A DNA stretch of 64,000 nt from Thainema sp. (lineage in GTDB: Bacteria; Cyanobacteriota; Cyanobacteriia; Phormidesmidales; Phormidesmidaceae), in contig JBQLZK010000002.1 in the NCBI GenBank assembly GCA_052168235.1, positions 1-64,000 on the forward strand, in the 5' to 3' direction. The notes under the pieces were generated by a model. The model was not told the origin of the DNA, ran no database searches, and saw only the letters and a list, made by a program, of their open reading frames with translations. Both the position numbers and the translations under genes were made by a program. The stretch's first letter is position 1. The number at the start of each line of letters is the position of its first letter. Of the stretch, positions 28,131-58,437 are shown piece after piece.

Positions 28131-29255
28131 ATGAAACGATTAATCGTCTGTTGTGATGGTACCTGGAATTCTCTACAGCGCCCCTCACAGGTCTCCCATA
28201 GTAACGTTGCAGAAATTGCCAAAGCGATTTTGCCCTACGATCCGCCGGAAGAATGCGATCAAACCGATGCAACTGCCGCCGGGGTGCAAACCGGGGTGCC
28301 ACAGATCGTGTTTTATGATGACGGTGTGGGCACGGGCTATCTAACCATTGATCGCTTTTTGGGCGGCACGATTGGCCTTGGCATTGATGCCAATATTCTG
28401 GAAGCCTATCGGTTTCTCTGCATGAACTACTGCCCTGGTGATGAAATCTATCTCTTCGGATTCAGCCGTGGCTCTTATACCATTCGCAGCTTGGGCGGAC
28501 TGATTAGTCGAATTGGACTGATGCGTCAGGATAAGCTCAATCAGTTGTGGAAAGCCTACAAGCTCTATCGGCAGCCCAAGCCCAATCCCAAGCAGCAACC
28601 CCAGGAACATCAGGCATTTGAAGACACAATCAAAGCGTTTCGGCAGGAGCACAGCATGCCCTATGAGGTGAAAATTAAGCTGTTGGCCTGTTGGGATACG
28701 GTTGGCTCGCTGGGAATTCCTAGAATTCCGCCACTGATGCCGCTGAAGTGGGTACTGGAAACTATATTTAATCTCAAGCACAGCTTCCACGATACAAATC
28801 TCAGTCCGATTATTGAAAATGCCATTCATGCGATCGCACTCAATGAAGATCGGCGCGTGTTTGATCTGACTCCGATGAATTTACCGTCCAATAGCCCTAC
28901 CCAGCTGGAGCAGTGCTGGTTCATCGGTAATCACGGCTGCTGCGGTGGCGGCACCCGCCAGCTATCTGCGATTAACTTTGTTTGGGTTACCGAAACAATG
29001 AAGGCGATGGGGCTCCCCCTCAAGCTGAATCCGGATGTGATTGAAGCGAATCGCCAGCAGCAGTATCCACTGCACCCGTATCAAACCTCAACAACCAAAT
29101 TGATCAATTTCCTATTCTGGATTTTCAATTGGCCGCCGTTTATGCCGCATCGCCGCAAAAATCCGCCCCAAGCTAAAATCCATCCCACTGTCATGGATCG
29201 ACTCAGCAAAGATTCAACCTACAAAAATCCGCTGCTCGAACAGCTGCAAGCTTAA
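28131..29255 (+). CDS. DUF2235 (Tle1-like) alpha/beta hydrolase
   Basis: KRLIVCCDGTWN, YDDGVGT, FGFSRG (GxSxG), WDTVGSLG and WFIGNH motifs. Confidence 0.92.
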   Translation: MKRLIVCCDGTWNSLQRPSQVSHSNVAEIAKAILPYDPPEECDQTDATAAGVQTGVPQIVFYDDGVGTGYLTIDRFLGGTIGLGIDANILEAYRFLCMNYCPGDEIYLFGFSRGSYTIRSLGGLISRIGLMRQDKLNQLWKAYKLYRQPKPNPKQQPQEHQAFEDTIKAFRQEHSMPYEVKIKLLACWDTVGSLGIPRIPPLMPLKWVLETIFNLKHSFHDTNLSPIIENAIHAIALNEDRRVFDLTPMNLPSNSPTQLEQCWFIGNHGCCGGGTRQLSAINFVWVTETMKAMGLPLKLNPDVIEANRQQQYPLHPYQTSTTKLINFLFWIFNWPPFMPHRRKNPPQAKIHPTVMDRLSKDSTYKNPLLEQLQA

Positions 29256-35835: not shown

Positions 35836-36201
35836 TTATCGTTCTGTTGATTGCGGTTCTGGTGCAGCTCTTAAAGCTCGTAGTTCTGCTTCTAGTCCTT
35901 CAATCCGCTGCTGGAGCTGACGGTTCGATTCCAATAGTTCTCGCGATTGGCCGCTGAGATAAGGATCGCTTTCCCACCAGTTGATACCGATCTCCTTGGC
36001 TTTATCCACTGAGGAAACGAGTAGACGAATGCGAATTGTCAGCAGTTCTGTAGAACCAACGGAGATCGCAATATCGCCAGCGATGACGATGCCTTTATCG
36101 AGTACCCGCTCCAGCACATCGGCTAGAGTTGAGGCTTGAGTCGATGTGGCGATTGGGCGTTGAGGGCTACTTTGGGGACGGTTATAAGTAGTGCCAGTCA
36201 T
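35836..36201 (-). CDS. gvpJ: Gas vesicle protein GvpJ
   Basis: STLADVLERVLDKGIVIAGDI...GINWWESDPYL. Confidence 0.92.
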   Translation of the reverse strand: MTGTTYNRPQSSPQRPIATSTQASTLADVLERVLDKGIVIAGDIAISVGSTELLTIRIRLLVSSVDKAKEIGINWWESDPYLSGQSRELLESNRQLQQRIEGLEAELRALRAAPEPQSTER

Positions 36202-36280: not shown

Positions 36281-37810
36281 CTAGCGAATCTTAAACATGG
36301 ATGGCTTGCCTTGTCCGCCCACCTGAGTGATTAAGCCGAGTTCAGCAAGGCGCTTGAGCGCATTTACAGTTTGGAAACGGTTCAATCCCAAGGCGGCCTC
36401 TAGCTGAGATAGCCGAGCTGGGCCATCCGTGTTGAGCTGCTTGTAAACTGCGATCGCATCGGGGTTTTGGATGCGGGCAGCAGGGTCTGCCGCCGGAGCT
36501 GCTTTGGTGGCCGTTGCTTTTGCAGGTGCAGCTGATTGAGCTACCGCTGATTGAGCCGTTGTCGGCTGATCAGCAACTGGTTTGGCAACGGATTGGGCGA
36601 CAGGCTGTGGACGGTTCGGGCGCGGTTCTGCCTCTAGGGTAGCAGTTGTGGCTGGTGTTGGAGCTGATTCATTGGTTTGCGGTTGAGCAGGGGGAGAGGG
36701 CGGGGAAACTGCGATCGCAGTTTCTTTCTCTACTGTTTCTACTGTTTCTATTAGCTCTATCGTTGCGGAATTAGCTGTATTCGCTGCTCCAGCACCGTTT
36801 TGTGTAGGATTCAGCTTACCGTTTCCATTAATGAACTCAGGATGCTTGGGCTGAGTCAGGGTAGCTTCCGGTTCGGTCAAATCCCGGATTTCGGTAGCTA
36901 AGTCAACACCTGGCACAATCAGGTCGCTGACGATGACGCTGTTGAACAGAGACCAGAGAATCTGACGAGCTTCGTCAACGGGGACAGCGGCGCGTGAGAG
37001 GAGAATGTCGCTGCAGGTATCGCGAAAGTCTACATCCTCCGGAACAACCCGCACATCATGCTCCTGGCAAACCTTGGCAATCATCATGCTGGCTCGCAGG
37101 CTGGACGCGCGTTCTTTGCTCGCTTTCCGCTGAAAGGCTTTTACCATACGTACGATCGCCAGTGCTGCCGAACGCTCAATATTGGTTTTCTGAACCAGGA
37201 TTTCCTGCTGGGTCAGCTCGTCCGGCTCCGGCATATCGATGGTAATTAAGCGATCCATCAGCGCATCTTGCGTACCGTGAACGCCGCAGTATTCTTCAGG
37301 GTTCGAGGTGAAAATGCCGCGAAAATGAGGATTTACTCGGATATATTCGGGCCGATTACCGCTGGGTGGTAGAACAATCAGCTTTTCCTCTAACGCCGAC
37401 AGCAGAACGTTGTTGACTTCAGGCCGAGAGCGGTTGAATTCGTCGTAAACCAGCGTAAATCCTTCCCGACAGGCCAGGGTCAAGCGGGAATCGACCCAGG
37501 TTTGCCGCATTTCGTCTTCGACTTTAATTACACTGTGGATAAAGTTATCCACCACTTTTTTGCGGGTATAGCCGGACTGGTTGCCGATTAGGTCAGAGGT
37601 TTTGTACTCATCATCGCCAAACAGCAGCATGATCGGACGACTGAGCAAATCGGCCAAGTGCATAGCCAATGTCGTTTTCCCCGTACCCGCAGGGCCGCGT
37701 AAATGAATGGAATAGCCCGACTGGAGGTAGCGGAGCGATCGGGCCGCGATGCGCTCAACGCTGGGGGTACTGACGAATTGCCGGGGGCGAGCTTGCAGAA
37801 CCGTGGTCAC
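36281..37810 (-). CDS. gvpN: Gas vesicle AAA+ ATPase GvpN with long C-terminal extension
   Basis: [22 protein letters not shown] and QDALMDR, followed by a Pro/Ala-rich linker and an HTH-like end. Confidence 0.95.
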
Positions 37811-37814
37811 GATG

Positions 37815-39089
37815 TTACCTCATTACCTTATGCACAACATAAACGCCGTCGCGTCGAACCACTTGGCCGTTACAAATTAGCGATCGCAACGCATCTACTG
37901 CTTGAACACGATTGAGATTAAGCTGACGTTCAATTTCATTCAGCCGCAGTCCACCCATTTGGTTCAGGCAGTCATAAACTGCTTGCTCCGTCACATTTAA
38001 CGATGGCTGAGCTACTGCTACTGTGGGAACCGGAATAGGTGTGATCGCAGGTGCCACCTCTTCCAGGGTTAGCGCTGGCAAAGTTGCCACGGCTGTTGCT
38101 TGGGGTGCTGCGGCTACGGGAGCAGACTGAGCAACGGGCTGAGCGGCGACTCGGACAGGTGCAGACTGTGCGGTAGCAGCCGGAACCGAGCGGGGCATAG
38201 CCGATTTCACAGCGACTTTAGCGGTTGTGGGTACAGACCGCTGGGCCACAGGTCGGCTAGGTGGGGGTGGGCTGGGTTGGCCCGACTTTTTGGCGGAGGT
38301 CGCAGGTGCTACAGGTTTAGGAGCAGGGTGGCGAGGTGGCATGGTCGAACGCACCGGGGTGCGCGCTATGATGCCGTCGGATCCCCAAACATAGGCTTGA
38401 ATTTGATTGCGATAGTCTTGCAGTTCGGTTCGAAACTCAGCGAATTCAGCAAACAATGCGTCCACTGCTACGAGACGCTCTTGCTGGCTCTGATCCAACA
38501 TCTGTCGCAGTTCAAAAATCCGCTCTTGGCGCAGCACGTCGAGTTCCAGTAAATAAGTTTCGACATCAGCTTGGAGCTGCTGCACAAACTGAGTCAGTTC
38601 CTGTTGCTGCTGGGCACTCATGGCAACGCGATCGTGACGGTGCTGGGCCAATTGAACCTGGGTAATCGTTTGCAGAGCTTGAACCCTAGCTTGGAGATCG
38701 CTGCGTAGCTCGGCTACAGCCTGCTGCATTTCAGCATGAAACTGGCTGAGCGTTTGCGAGACTTCCTGTGCCATCAGAACGCGATCTGCTGCCGTCAACG
38801 ATAGGAAATCAGCCGTTTCGGCTCGTAGAGATTCAACAAACTGGTGGAGTCGCTCGGCAACTTCAACACGGCGCACCTGCCGATCTTGAGCGGTCTGATT
38901 CAAAAAGGCTTGCGTGTCTTGCTGAAGCGCAAACGTGAACTGGCTCAAGTCATCTCGCACCTGTGCGGCTTGAATCGTGCGATCAATAGAGAAGGCAGCC
39001 AGAATATCCTGCACCTGCTGCTGCCGATTGAGAATTTCAGCCTGGCGATGTTGCCGCTGCTCTTGCCACTGTGCCTGGAGTGAAGTCAC
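37815..39089 (-). CDS. gvpC: Gas vesicle protein GvpC with C-terminal extension
   Basis: About five 33-aa helical repeats (e.g. [33 protein letters not shown]); lies between gvpA and gvpN. Confidence 0.85.
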
Positions 39090-39298: not shown

Positions 39299-39517
39299 TT
39301 AAGCGTTAGGAACAGCAGCTTGTGCGGTCAAACCAACTGCTTCGGCATATTTCAGATAGGTTTCAACAGAAGCGATAACGACGCGAGCTTCTACAGCGAG
39401 AAGTTCGATACCTACCAGAGATACACGAACCCATGCGTCAACTACGATGCCTTTGTCGAGAATGCGGTCAACAACTTCAGCTAGGCTAGAGGAGGAATTA
39501 ACTTTTTCAACTGCCAT
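39299..39517 (-). CDS. gvpA: Gas vesicle structural protein GvpA
   Basis: [40 protein letters not shown]. Confidence 0.99.
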
Positions 39518-39931: not shown

Positions 39932-40555
39932 TTATCCACTTGCCGGATTGTTTGGGTGGAGCTGATCGGTTTGCCAATTGGCCGGATTTGTCTGGATGTA
40001 GTATCGAATCTGCTCTAGCGATTCTTTGTTACGGATAATGTGTTCGTAATAATTGCGCTGCCAAACGGGGGTTCTGGGTGTATTTCTCAGGAGATTAATG
40101 CGTTTAGTTGCCGTCGATTTGAATCCGGTTATGAATGACGATAATGAACGTGGCCGCATGAATGGCGTCACATGTTGTATGGGTGAATGACCGTTCTGTA
40201 GGGGCGAATGGCCATTCGCCCCTACGGGATTTTGCGGCTGATTAGACACCTGGGATGAATTATCTGATACCTGTTGTGATGTTTTGTCCTGAATAAATAC
40301 GATGCCGTGAATGTGATTAGGCATGATAACCCAGGCATCCAAATTGATTTCTTGTCGGATATTTTGCGATCGCAACCATTCCTCGGCAACAATTTGCCCC
40401 AATGAATCTAATTGCATTTTGCCATCAACAATATCGCCGAATAAACATTCGCGTTGATGAGTGCAAATGGTAATGAAATACGCGCCTGGTGATGAATAAT
40501 CGTATCCGTTGAGGCGAATGGAACGACGATGATGTTTATCCGGGTTGTATTTCAT
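39932..40555 (-). mobile_element. REP-associated tyrosine transposase (RAYT, Y1 HUH family)
   Basis: RRSIRL, YFITICT, VIMPNHIHG (HUH), WQRNYYEHIIR and YIQTNP (catalytic Tyr); cognate REP upstream. Confidence 0.93.
40198..40225. repeat. REP palindrome inside the RAYT coding sequence
   Basis: Perfect 28-bp palindrome GTAGGGGCGAATGGCCATTCGCCCCTAC. Confidence 0.9.
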
Positions 40556-40797: not shown

Positions 40798-42570
40798 TTA
40801 CACTTTACAAGTCTGGATGCGAGAGAAGAGACTCCCCTCCCCCGACCCACACCACAAAACCCACACCCACTCCCACTCCCCGAAAGGGAGGTGGCCTTGG
40901 GGTGCTGAGGTGCTAAATGTTACATCAAAGTAGTAAATATACGAGCCGTTCACTCTCCATCCAGTGCGATCGCAGAATTCTCCCCAAATCTTATCACCTG
41001 GATATTTCCCGTCGAGCTTGGCTCCACACTGGACGTAAATTTCTTTTTGCACGCTGAAGCCAAATTGACCGTTGCTGTACTTCACCCACAGTCGATCTAT
41101 CGTTTTCAGATCCGCACAGGGGAAGTTTAAGAGTTCTTCTGATTTAAGCAAGTCGCCTGATTTCTTCCCAACTGCCCGGATCATCACTTCGTAGGTTTCT
41201 TTGTCCGCCTCTTCCCACTCACCCGCCTTCAGCAAATCCCGCAATCGCGTATAGTTAATCCCCTTGTCCGAAGCCAAGCTAACTGTTTCTGCGATTTCAT
41301 GGAGCGCACTTTCTACGGCACTATGCATATGCGCCCATAAATGAATCGTGCTGTTAAATACTTTTTCCCCAAGGAGAGCTTTTTCTTTGCTATCCAAACC
41401 TGATAAAGCATGTTGCGCACTTGTTTCTGTGCTTACCTGTAGTTCGTAATTAGTTGCATTTTTTTCAGGTGTGGATGAAAACGAGCCTTTAGAAGCTTGG
41501 GAAGGTTCTAAGATGTGCGCTTCAATCTTCTGCACATCCTCATCCCGCAGTTGCTTCCGATCTTGAATTCGCTTCAGTTTTCGTCGCTGTAACTCATCCA
41601 GCGGATACTGCTGAGCAATCGCGGTCTGAAATGCACGCTGATAAAACTCAACGCGCTCTTTCAGTTCCCTAAACGGCTGAAGGATAGACGATTCAATCGC
41701 TTTCGCATCAGTTTCAGATAAATTTAACTCATCCCGAATATCGTCCAAATCTAGCCGATCCAGCTCGCTAATGAATCCCTGATTTTCCTGAACAACTCGC
41801 TCTACCTCTTGCCGATAGCGCAACTTCGGATCGCCAAGCGCCACCTTTGCCAACTCAATCCGAAATCCCTCGTCCTTCAAAACAATGATTTTTGGAGACA
41901 TCGCAGGTGCTGCTTCTTTCACCTTTAGCTCAGCATACTGGTGCAGCTCATCCACTGAGATTTGCCCGTCTTTATTCAGGTCGGCTGCCCCTGTCTCAAT
42001 ACCTTCAACCAAATAGCGCGTGTAAATCGACAAGTCTGAACCCGGTTGCTCAAATGAATATTGCACCGCACTTGAAGAAGTCAGCACGACTCTTCCCTCT
42101 GCACCAAGCTGTTCAACCAGATTTAATGCTCCATCATCTTTAGCGGTTAAATTACCAAACGCACCACTAAAGCAACAGTCCAAAATCACCACCTGCCGCC
42201 GCGCCCGACTCCGCAAAATGCACTCATGCACAAACGCAGCATCAAGCGCAGTTGAACTAATCAAAAAATCACCATCTTTGCGGGTATTACTGGCTGCAAA
42301 ATACAGCTTGCCTCGATCATCTTTGACCCCATGACCCGAAAAATAGAGCAGCGCTAGATCATCTCGTTGCCGTCGTCGGAACCAGGTTTCAATTGTTGCA
42401 GCGATTTCCCCATTAGTTTGGTCAATTAGTGTTTGTACGTCATCGAAGCAGCCGATTTCTGGATTCTGCAAAACTGCCTGCAACGCTACTACATCCTTCG
42501 GTGCCGCAGGTAATGCCTTGAATCCTTTTTGATATTGACTGGTGCCGATGAGCAGTGCCGTTTTCGCCAT
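40798..42570 (-). CDS. Caspase-like (peptidase C14) protease with C-terminal GUN4-like domain
   Basis: ALLIG, YFSGHG and ILDCCFSG (His/Cys dyad). C-terminal YTRLRDLLKAGEWEEADKET, FPCADLKTIDRLWVKYSNGQFGFSVQ and APQGHLP. Confidence 0.92.
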   Translation of the reverse strand: MAKTALLIGTSQYQKGFKALPAAPKDVVALQAVLQNPEIGCFDDVQTLIDQTNGEIAATIETWFRRRQRDDLALLYFSGHGVKDDRGKLYFAASNTRKDGDFLISSTALDAAFVHECILRSRARRQVVILDCCFSGAFGNLTAKDDGALNLVEQLGAEGRVVLTSSSAVQYSFEQPGSDLSIYTRYLVEGIETGAADLNKDGQISVDELHQYAELKVKEAAPAMSPKIIVLKDEGFRIELAKVALGDPKLRYRQEVERVVQENQGFISELDRLDLDDIRDELNLSETDAKAIESSILQPFRELKERVEFYQRAFQTAIAQQYPLDELQRRKLKRIQDRKQLRDEDVQKIEAHILEPSQASKGSFSSTPEKNATNYELQVSTETSAQHALSGLDSKEKALLGEKVFNSTIHLWAHMHSAVESALHEIAETVSLASDKGINYTRLRDLLKAGEWEEADKETYEVMIRAVGKKSGDLLKSEELLNFPCADLKTIDRLWVKYSNGQFGFSVQKEIYVQCGAKLDGKYPGDKIWGEFCDRTGWRVNGSYIYYFDVTFSTSAPQGHLPFGEWEWVWVLWCGSGEGSLFSRIQTCKV

Positions 42571-57808: not shown

Positions 57809-58437
57809 AGCGCCTGACCGGAGGCAATACTTTGGGCACCGGGTTCATGAATGTAGAGAATGCAGTCCGTTTCGCTCTTGACCATAATCAGGTCATCGCC
57901 CCGCTGAGCAATTTTTGTGATCAGCTCCAGCGCTCGATCCATGTCAGGCTCCTGACGGAAAAAGCTGTAGTAGCCACCGTTAAACGCGATCGCAACTAGA
58001 GGTTTATCTAGATCCGGTGTGCGAATGTAGCACGGCTGATACTGGGCGCGGTCAATTAAAATCGTACAGGTGCCCGGTGCGATCGCATTTAGGCCAGCCG
58101 CAGACGTGCGGGTTTTGCAGACGATGGGCGTTGCATTGGGCTCCAAACCCCAGAGACTGTAGCCTTTAGGGGTAGCGAGAATTGCGACTTCTTCGCCCCG
58201 ATAGCTCAACTTGGTCAACAACCTCAGCGTTTTGGCCACAGTGTCGGTCGCTTTTAGAAAGCTGTAGAATCCTCGCCCCGTTTGAATCGACGGCAAGCTG
58301 TGGTCACAGTCCGGAATTTGAATGCGGCAGGTATGGTACTGCTGGCGGGAGGCGAGAAAAACGGTAGCGGCTGGCACATGATGCTTAAGCTGTTCAGATG
58401 ATAGTGACACAGTTCGAGATTGCATGGAGACACACAA
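57805..58437 (-). CDS. Hypothetical protein with a tandem duplicated domain
   Basis: Two copies of R-x-QY-x2-C-x-I-x2-PD-x-D...[FY]YSF; start uncertain (possibly ATG 58425). Confidence 0.7.
   Translation of the reverse strand: MCVSMQSRTVSLSSEQLKHHVPAATVFLASRQQYHTCRIQIPDCDHSLPSIQTGRGFYSFLKATDTVAKTLRLLTKLSYRGEEVAILATPKGYSLWGLEPNATPIVCKTRTSAAGLNAIAPGTCTILIDRAQYQPCYIRTPDLDKPLVAIAFNGGYYSFFRQEPDMDRALELITKIAQRGDDLIMVKSETDCILYIHEPGAQSIASGQAL

Follow-up and report, generated by a model that had tools for sequence, protein, structure and literature searches.

Gas-vesicle proteins with C-terminal parts comparable to those considered here have been described in two settings. In benthic Planktothrix, a 28-amino-acid stretch of the C-terminus of the protein GvpC40 is 64% identical to GvpN, and this C-terminus resembles that of the GvpC of Geitlerinema PCC 7407, according to the accessible text of Pancrace et al. 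(2017; PMC5259702). In Halobacterium salinarum, GvpC's conserved C-terminal domain binds GvpN and GvpO, as given in the accessible part of Jost and Pfeifer (2022; PMC9372576). The corresponding part of Cai et al. (2020; PMC7204071) describes no more of GvpN than its AAA domain, and the route by which this essential ATPase reaches a growing vesicle is regarded as not yet clear (PMC11445434). Here we analyse gvpC (37815-39089, minus strand, 424 aa), the gene for the outer coat protein, and gvpN (36281-37810, minus strand, 509 aa), the gene for the ATPase, within a stretch of 64,000 nucleotides from the cyanobacterium Thainema sp. (contig JBQLZK010000002.1), hereafter referred to as the window. 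Both the coat protein and the ATPase carry a gas-vesicle winged-helix head on a flexible tether, and this head is real, conserved and previously noted only in passing.

In a preliminary description of the window, no earlier account of this feature was known; one does exist, the stretch shared by GvpC and GvpN having been noted in benthic Planktothrix in a single sentence (PMC5259702, accessible part). The GvpC40 of benthic and biphasic Planktothrix is like the GvpC of the window in being long (about 40 kDa), with degenerate repeats and a GvpN-like C-terminus, and one Planktothrix locus of the genome scan described below has the same architecture as the window. The accessible text on GvpC40 consists of one sentence and a figure line, which name no fold, linker or function; within that text, the extension of GvpN itself is not noted, and no survey is given beyond two genera. 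In a literature search that covered few of the subscription journals, no paper was found linking GvpN or gas vesicles with a winged helix, a helix-turn-helix (HTH), TrmB or a DNA-binding fusion.

Homology of the two tails and their linkers

The C-terminal tails of GvpN and GvpC match without gaps at 19 of 39 positions, between GvpN residues 454-492 (36335-36451) and GvpC residues 370-408 (37866-37982), exactly as the preliminary description had reported, and the whole module comprises about 60 residues in each protein. The Smith-Waterman score of the two tails was 80, whereas shuffled sequences gave 21.6 +/- 4.2 and none of 2000 shuffles reached the observed score. Comparison of the whole proteins by BLASTP gave an E-value of 3e-7. 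When 780 six-frame segments of the window were searched with phmmer, either tail retrieved the other at an E-value of about 2.5e-5, and no other convincing tail match was detected among these segments. As judged by these sequence comparisons, the tails of GvpC and GvpN are homologous and stand to each other as paralogues.

An additional segment was considered as a third copy of the tail and rejected as a chance resemblance. This 47-codon open segment (58258-58398, plus strand), which weakly resembles the third helix of the tail, gave an E-value of 3.4e-4 with a two-sequence profile and of 0.0048 (12.1 bits) with a 123-sequence profile. It is partial and lies antisense to an open reading frame (ORF) of 210 aa.

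Each tail stands behind a linker of about 125-145 residues that is predicted to be disordered. The earlier statement that both linkers are rich in Pro and Ala is borne out by their composition, which is 22% Ala, 20% Pro and 12% Val for GvpC residues 236-358 (38016..38384, minus strand; Ala/Pro/Val/Ser-rich) and 21% Ala, 14% Pro and 13% Thr for GvpN residues 301-445. In the full-length AlphaFold2 model of GvpN, no secondary structure was assigned by DSSP to residues 313-442, and the predicted local distance difference test score (pLDDT) fell below 50 at residues 313-320, 322-355, 359-369 and 375-438; the linker proper was set at residues 313-438 (36497..36874, minus strand), an acidic segment rich in Ala, Pro, Thr and Glu. 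Linker length among the relatives of both proteins is widely variable, with a median of 94 residues (range 29-287) for GvpC and of 87 residues for GvpN.

The linkers have changed much more than the domains on either side. Between GvpN of the window and four close relatives (P0003-P0006), identity is 97-98% in the AAA+ part, 35-41% in the linker (residues 301-445) and 80-84% in the tail, while between GvpC and its relative P0001 it is 89% in the repeats, 63% in the linker and 79% in the tail. From these identities, the tails are under purifying selection while the linkers drift. An acidic GvpN linker is shared by all 51 relatives compared (median net charge -15); in the window its net charge is -7, counted over 159 residues with a boundary that differs slightly from the one above. 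Of 39 relatives, 24 have a basic GvpC linker and 13 an acidic one, and that of the window carries +9, again for a slightly different boundary (129 residues). The two linkers of the window are opposite in charge, acidic in GvpN and basic in GvpC, which might matter, for instance through electrostatic attraction.

Predicted fold of the tails

The structures were predicted with AlphaFold2 for GvpC residues 355-424, using an alignment of 15 rows, and for full-length GvpN, using 55 rows. The model of the GvpC tail (residues 359-424; 37818..38015, minus strand) has a mean pLDDT of 82.5, with a core of about 90, and consists of helices at positions 12-24, 29-36 and 40-52 and strands at 27-28, 56-59 and 62-65 in the numbering of the 70-residue fragment. 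In the GvpN tail (residues 439-509; 36284..36496, minus strand), pLDDT ranges from 88 to 98, with helices at residues 450-462, 467-474 and 478-490 and strands at 494-497 and 505-508, the wing being longer than that of the GvpC tail. Both models follow the winged-helix order H1-b1-H2-turn-H3-b2-wing-b3. No dimerisation helices and no effector domain adjoin this winged HTH (wHTH) domain, and each protein ends a few residues past the wing.

A Foldseek search against the PDB gave at least 500 matches at E <= 10. The listed ones belong to winged-helix domains and have query template-modelling (TM) scores of 0.50-0.79. Between the GvpC tail and winged-helix domains of the MarR, TrmB and IclR type, the TM score is 0.67-0.79. 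The matches include MarR/OhrR, IclR, an archaeal DNA-binding protein, Z-alpha, the RNA polymerase III subunit RPC39 and the N-terminal domain of O-methyltransferases. Among the matches listed the best E-value is 2.5e-3, none being at or below 0.001, and these modest values are attributable to the small size of the domain. The diversity of the matches, together with their modest E-values, indicates that the fold of the tail is generic, with no single close relative among solved structures. According to the models, both tails are canonical winged helices behind an unstructured linker, and the winged-helix fold that the preliminary description had proposed from the sequence pattern is upheld by AlphaFold2 for both proteins, with support from Foldseek.

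The same assignment emerged from sequence profiles. The Pfam family TrmB (PF01978) scored 17.3 bits with the GvpC tail and 17.5 bits with the GvpN tail, both under the gathering cut-off of 25.6, and HTH_27 gave a sub-threshold score of 18.5 bits with the GvpN tail. At E <= 0.01, TrmB was matched by 42 of 55 relatives of GvpN and 29 of 40 relatives of GvpC, and MarR_2 by 20 of 55 GvpN relatives; PF01978 was also precomputed for about 44 of the best 120 GvpN relatives. When the tail profile was compared with the sequences of the PDB, Z-alpha domains and MarR or IclR regulators came first, with E-values from 6.5e-4.

Z-alpha domains possess a conserved Asn and Tyr in helix 3, which contact Z-DNA, and a Trp in the wing. 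This signature was not found in the tails. The Asn and Tyr positions of the Z-alpha domain of ORF112 fall on Val and Arg of the tail consensus in the HMMER alignment, and the consensus of the wing in C tails (the tails of GvpC proteins, as N tails are those of GvpN) is QrDRxY, without Trp. The C tails are very uniform, showing column identities of at least 80% along the entire third helix (46 sequences). The mean net charge of the tail is +0.3 for C tails (n=46) and -1.3 for N tails (n=128), and a net charge of +3 or more is reached in just 15% and 8% of them, respectively.

From these similarities the tails might be taken for nucleic-acid anchors, the main rival of the docking reading set out below. 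The heads would bind DNA with little or no sequence preference, and avidity, arising from the many heads of a GvpC-coated vesicle or the several of a GvpN oligomer, would tether the vesicles and GvpN to the nucleoid. We regard this as possible but rather unlikely, and the same applies to the corollary that such tethering would serve positioning and even inheritance along the filament. TrmB, MarR_2 and HTH_27 are matched by most relatives, and the best PDB sequence matches bind nucleic acid, as do the Foldseek matches 7bzh, OhrR and CadC. Helix 3 has a conserved Arg at its N-terminus, the R-D-R of the wing is kept in C tails, and the GvpC linker is basic in the window and in most of its relatives. 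Granule-to-nucleoid tethers such as PhaF and PhaM are built in this way. In contrast, the tails are near neutral or acidic on average, few reaching +3, and the GvpN linker is strongly acidic in all relatives compared. MarR and TrmB proteins dimerise to bind DNA, using additional helices that the tails lack, and a strictly conserved exposed face of helix 3, as seen in C tails, is unexpected for non-specific binding.

Distribution and history of the tail

A search with full-length GvpN gave 3970 matches at E <= 1e-10. The tail was present in all of the best 120 of these (388-584 aa), a ranking that favours tail-bearers because the tail adds to the score. The sources include Leptolyngbya, Oculatella, Nodosilinea, Stenomitos, Trichocoleus and Chroococcidiopsis. 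With full-length GvpC, 40 relatives of 257-446 aa were obtained, mostly labelled 'hypothetical', and all but one carried the tail (39/40). A word-index search with the GvpC tail alone yielded 1 protein among 49 candidates, being too insensitive for a short domain, and was superseded by a profile search.

The profile of the tail, when compared with 1.84 billion cluster representatives, detected 566 at E <= 0.001, of which 202 reached E <= 1e-10. In the 150 best of these 566, a GvpC-like N-terminal part precedes the tail in 125 and the AAA+ part of GvpN in 4, the remaining 21 being linker-plus-tail pieces of 65-256 aa; no other architecture was found in these 150, and in every one no more than about 45 residues separate the end of the match from the C-terminus. 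On these sequence matches, the tail subfamily seems to occur almost only in gas-vesicle proteins in the databases searched.

A genome scan with the AAA+ part of GvpN detected at least 80 loci, 27 cyanobacterial and 53 non-cyanobacterial loci being listed. GvpN carries the tail in 8 of the 27 cyanobacterial loci (L001, which is the Planktothrix locus mentioned above, L002, L003, L004, L007, L011, L045 and, as a partial gene at a contig end, L009), while in one more (L032) gvpN is cut by the contig end. Neither gene carries a tail in the other 18, which comprise Microcystis, Halothece, two Calothrix, Aliinostoc, Tolypothrix and 12 loci of the Pseudanabaena/Thermostichus type. A tail at the gvpC position was detected in five of the cyanobacterial loci (L001, L002, L003, L032 and L045), and where gvpN could be assessed in these, GvpN was tailed as well (4/4). 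There are probably five further pairs of C and N tails on a shared contig, as judged from the equal lengths listed for their contigs. Conservation in orthologues and co-occurrence in the two genes, on which the preliminary description had made its proposal depend, were thus both observed, hundreds of GvpC and GvpN relatives being tailed. In Nostoc punctiforme NIES-2108, a tailed GvpN stands beside a tail-less GvpC that is canonical by Pfam.

Among non-cyanobacterial loci, a tail was detected in a metagenome-assembled genome (MAG) of Dehalococcoidia (L072:7021-7821), in which a 266-aa ORF lies between a gvpA-like gene and gvpN. The C-terminus of its product matches the tail profile at E = 5.7e-9; the product has no significant Pfam match and forms a very long branch in the tail tree. 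This tail could be an independent fusion or a transfer.

Of the five cyanobacterial loci in which a tail stands at the gvpC position, three have the body and the tail of gvpC separated, by two in-frame stops within the Pro-rich linker (L002:7390-8004) or by a frame change between body and tail (L003:7519-8001 and L045:2440-2655). Such breaks might be taken to indicate that the tails are decaying relics, or else that their similarity arose by chance or from low complexity, but we give this view practically no credence. It is refuted by the shuffling test, by a family that spans 566 cluster representatives and by the conservation of the tail, which far exceeds that of the linker, and the fold of the tail is predicted with confidence. 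The breaks themselves are likely to be assembly errors, because all three genomes are MAGs, the linker is of low complexity and the gvpN of L045 is fragmented too.

In a quick tree of the AAA+ part, all 21 tailed GvpNs fall in one clade of 27 rows with 99% support, together with six tail-less GvpNs, and the tail-less Pseudanabaena and Thermostichus types stand outside this clade. The tree fits a single gain of the GvpN tail followed by at least three losses. The tree of the tail itself is also a quick one, with support from the Shimodaira-Hasegawa-like approximate likelihood ratio test (SH-aLRT) only, and many of its forks are unresolved (66 columns x 174 rows). A split supported at 96% by SH-aLRT places all 46 C tails on the same side, together with 16 short-wing N tails. 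In no genome do the C and N tails pair with each other, indicating that they are old paralogues rather than recent copies. Recent duplication or gene conversion was accordingly rejected, since tails of the same genome are unpaired in the tree and their identity, 36-50% (14% for the fragmentary L045), does not clearly exceed the 34% averaged over all C-N pairs.

Possible function of the winged-helix head

We tentatively favour, at somewhat less than even confidence, the reading that the winged-helix tail is a tethered protein-docking head specific to gas vesicles. In this model, the repeats of GvpC would lie on the GvpA ribs, with the heads projecting into the cytoplasm as a brush, and each GvpN protomer would carry one head hanging on its acidic linker. 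Both heads would bind the same gas-vesicle-associated protein surface, either a Gvp protein or the coated shell, and in genomes with both tails the other tail might also be a target. Docking could then hold the low-abundance ATPase GvpN near vesicles being elongated and, as a by-product, could link neighbouring vesicles. A head of this kind would not be a classical transcription factor.

The docking reading is favoured because the head, in the databases searched, is almost confined to gas-vesicle proteins, C tails strictly conserve the exposed helix 3 although no conserved operator is apparent, the GvpN linker is acidic and a contact between GvpN and the C-terminal domain of GvpC exists in Halobacterium. 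The purifying selection on the tails, the old paralogy of C and N tails and their near-neutral mean charge speak for it too. An acidic linker would perhaps be an odd neighbour for a DNA-binding head, a weak argument by itself. The top Foldseek matches also include winged helices for protein-protein contacts, for instance those that form the N-terminal domain in the O-methyltransferases RedM and PigF. Since GvpN keeps its tail where GvpC is without one, a common gas-vesicle-associated surface is a likelier target than the other tail alone. Complex prediction for the GvpN tail with the GvpC tail gave scores of 0.00 and 0.00 (mark 0.32), a result that counts neither for nor against binding.

Several observations weigh against docking. 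The closest sequence families of the tails, TrmB and MarR_2 in Pfam and Z-alpha, MarR and IclR in the PDB, are DNA-binding, helix 3 begins with a nearly invariant Arg, and the wing keeps basic residues. The tail is present on GvpN but not on GvpC in four of the cyanobacterial loci listed (L004, L007, L009 and L011), and tail-to-tail recruitment therefore cannot be its general function, while in the Dehalococcoidia locus (Chloroflexota) described above it is present on the ORF upstream of a tail-less gvpN, the only such case in the 53 non-cyanobacterial loci listed. No gene family specific to tail-bearing loci was found within about 8 kb: when the ORFs of 7 loci with a tail and 11 without one were compared all against all by BLASTP, each family found in at least three of the tailed loci also had members in loci without a tail. 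Moreover, the arguments for docking from charge and from shared k-mers are weak. The latter refers to a crude comparison, made without mismatches or a motif finder, in which no exact 8- to 10-mer was common to at least 5 of 10 tail-bearing regions upstream of gvpA.

The lack of such a shared upstream word also counts against assembly-coupled transcriptional feedback, in which vesicle-free GvpC or GvpN would bind a specific operator and tune gvp expression. The tail does belong to winged-helix families of the regulator type, and the label of one GvpC homologue reads 'predicted transcriptional regulator'. It would nevertheless be unusual for a repressor to be designed as a head that hangs from an abundant structural protein by about 90-150 residues of disordered linker, and the tails lack a dimerisation element; we consider feedback very doubtful.

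Bundling or spacing of the vesicles could also be envisaged, the brush of GvpC linkers and heads setting the distance between vesicles or cross-linking them into the aligned bundles known from cyanobacteria, and GvpN sharing the head in order to enter the bundles. GvpC coats the entire vesicle surface (PMC9372576, accessible part), from which a dense brush of tails would follow, and the length of the GvpC linker varies as widely as that of a spacer would. According to the accessible text of a preprint (bioRxiv 10.1101/2023.06.01.543273), little is known of how the honeycomb bundles of cyanobacteria form. The GvpN tail is, however, more widespread than the GvpC tail and occurs without it, and vesicle abundance reportedly does not differ between Planktothrix with and without the long GvpC (PMC5259702, accessible part). 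Bundling as the main role appears improbable, and docking on a gas-vesicle-associated surface is retained as the preferred reading.

Gene organization of the window

The genes gvpA, gvpC, gvpN and gvpJ lie in a row on the minus strand and are followed by glgC in convergent orientation. The first gene of the run, gvpA (39299..39517, minus strand, 72 aa), codes for the major shell protein and scored 59.9 bits with Pfam Gas_vesicle and 137.4 bits with NCBIfam NF006874 (cut-off 100). The gvpC gene starts with GTG, preceded by AGGAGG, and ends with the stop codon at 37815-37817, and the GTG start of gvpN follows 4 nt past this stop. The last gvp gene of the run is gvpJ-like (35836..36201, minus strand, 121 aa; Gas_vesicle, 57.6 bits). 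Of the 28 loci tabulated, 26 have a small GvpA/J-like ORF directly after gvpN, and in the other two (L009 and L032) the contig ends before this position.

GvpN consists of an AAA+ ATPase body (residues 1-312; 36875..37810, minus strand), with the Walker A motif GPAGTGKT at residues 39-46, and of the linker and tail described above. It scored 385.7 bits with the equivalog TIGR02640 gas_vesic_GvpN (cut-off 266.8), over residues 12-273 only, which leaves almost half of the protein uncovered by this model. The AAA+ body also matches Pfam AAA_5 (E = 2e-17). On these family scores, the identities of GvpA and GvpN are secure. The entry for this GvpN in a public collection (P0002, 100% identity, 90% coverage) is a 460-aa form from Met50, a start that would cut off the Walker A motif, while the GTG start at 37810 agrees with the N-terminal consensus of the relatives and with the TIGR02640 match from residue 12. 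Within the AAA+ body, the AlphaFold2 model has pLDDT below 50 at residues 64-115, 117-129 and 143-159, a region (residues 64-159) that is almost invariant in the 55-row alignment.

The part of GvpC expected on the shell is the Gln-rich segment of degenerate helical repeats (residues 1-235; 38385..39089, minus strand). It scored 15.9 bits with the 33-residue repeat Gas_vesicle_C (PF01304), under the cut-off of 21, and this family matches 8 of the 40 GvpC relatives at E <= 0.01. The internal periodicity of residues 1-235, at offsets 33, 84 and 117, exceeds that of all 300 shuffles. With phmmer, the repeat part matched the GvpCs of Nostoc, Calothrix and Microcystis loci at E-values of 1e-5 to 1e-19, and the protein that it matched in L011 scores 245.9 bits on PF01304. 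The identification of GvpC rests on its position between gvpA and gvpN, on the periodicity of its repeats and on these matches to canonical GvpCs.

Among the remaining 52 long ORFs of the window, no further gvp gene (gvpK, gvpF/L, gvpG, gvpV or gvpW) was detected with Pfam, and the rest of the gvp cluster must therefore sit elsewhere in the genome. Nostoc-type loci, unlike the window, go on past gvpJ with more conserved genes. Just upstream of the gvpA promoter region, a 207-aa ORF (39932-40555, minus strand) shows a weak match to an IS200-like Y1 transposase (29.4 bits, no stretch passing alone). A 590-aa protein (40798-42570, minus strand) combines an N-terminal caspase-like Peptidase_C14 domain (66.5 bits) with a C-terminal GUN4-like domain (133.6 bits). 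A 374-aa ORF (28131-29255, plus strand) matches the Pfam Tle1-like catalytic domain of the type VI secretion system (258.3 bits), and no secretion-system genes were detected near it in the same general Pfam scan. The HIP1 octamer GCGATCGC is present in 90 copies in the window, compared with about 2 expected, and two of these lie within the tail-coding regions, at 36450 and 37880.

Significance and comparison with known systems

A conserved gas-vesicle address module on both the coat protein and the ATPase would give a concrete handle on the targeting of GvpN and on vesicle bundling, being deletable, swappable and of a size suited to binding screens and structural studies. GvpC with repeats only and GvpN with an AAA+ part only, the textbook forms known from Anabaena and Microcystis, are the reduced forms within a large clade. 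Since GvpC is the usual engineering site of gas-vesicle reporters, the natural linker and folded head at its C-terminus represent a ready-made scaffold for display.

The C-terminal part of GvpC in H. salinarum is a contact site of the coat protein for the ATPase GvpN (PMC9372576, accessible part). Unlike GvpN of the window, the halobacterial GvpN is not reported, in that text, to have a counterpart of this domain, nor does the text mention a winged helix. The wHTH domains of TrmB, MarR and IclR regulators (PF01978, PF12802, PF01047 and PF09339) share their topology and a recognisable sequence pattern with the tails, but the tail is a lone domain at a C-terminus behind a disordered linker, without dimerisation helices or an effector domain. 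Among PDB sequences, the tail profile finds its best matches in the Z-alpha domains of ORF112 of CyHV-3, PKZ and ADAR1 (E-values of 6.5e-4 to 2.9e-3), which are compact winged helices with three helices and roughly as large as the tail.

An appended head on a shell protein has a counterpart in EutK, a microcompartment shell protein with a small C-terminal HTH domain (PMC5821096, accessible part), although EutK, unlike GvpC, has no paralogous head on an ATPase. In an Atlas feature search with the tail, the EutK_C cluster came first with a best score of 0.83, under the lead level, and the likeness is taken as an analogy without implied kinship. GvpU of Bacillus megaterium is an accessory factor that orders vesicles in space through binding to the shell; as far as the accessible text goes (bioRxiv 10.1101/2023.06.01.543273), it differs from the tails in being a separate, phase-separating protein that binds the C-terminus of the major shell protein, with no winged helix fused to GvpC or GvpN.

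In a wider and rather speculative view, which we think unlikely as a whole, the heads would make GvpC-coated vesicles multivalent particles that dock on a cellular scaffold, either the nucleoid or a cytoplasmic partner, with GvpN bearing the same address tag. The tails would then belong to a system of positioning and inheritance in filamentous cyanobacteria, repeatedly lost, for example in Microcystis, Halothece and several Nostocales. Such positioning of vesicles would resemble in its logic the nucleoid hitch-hiking of storage granules and carboxysomes.

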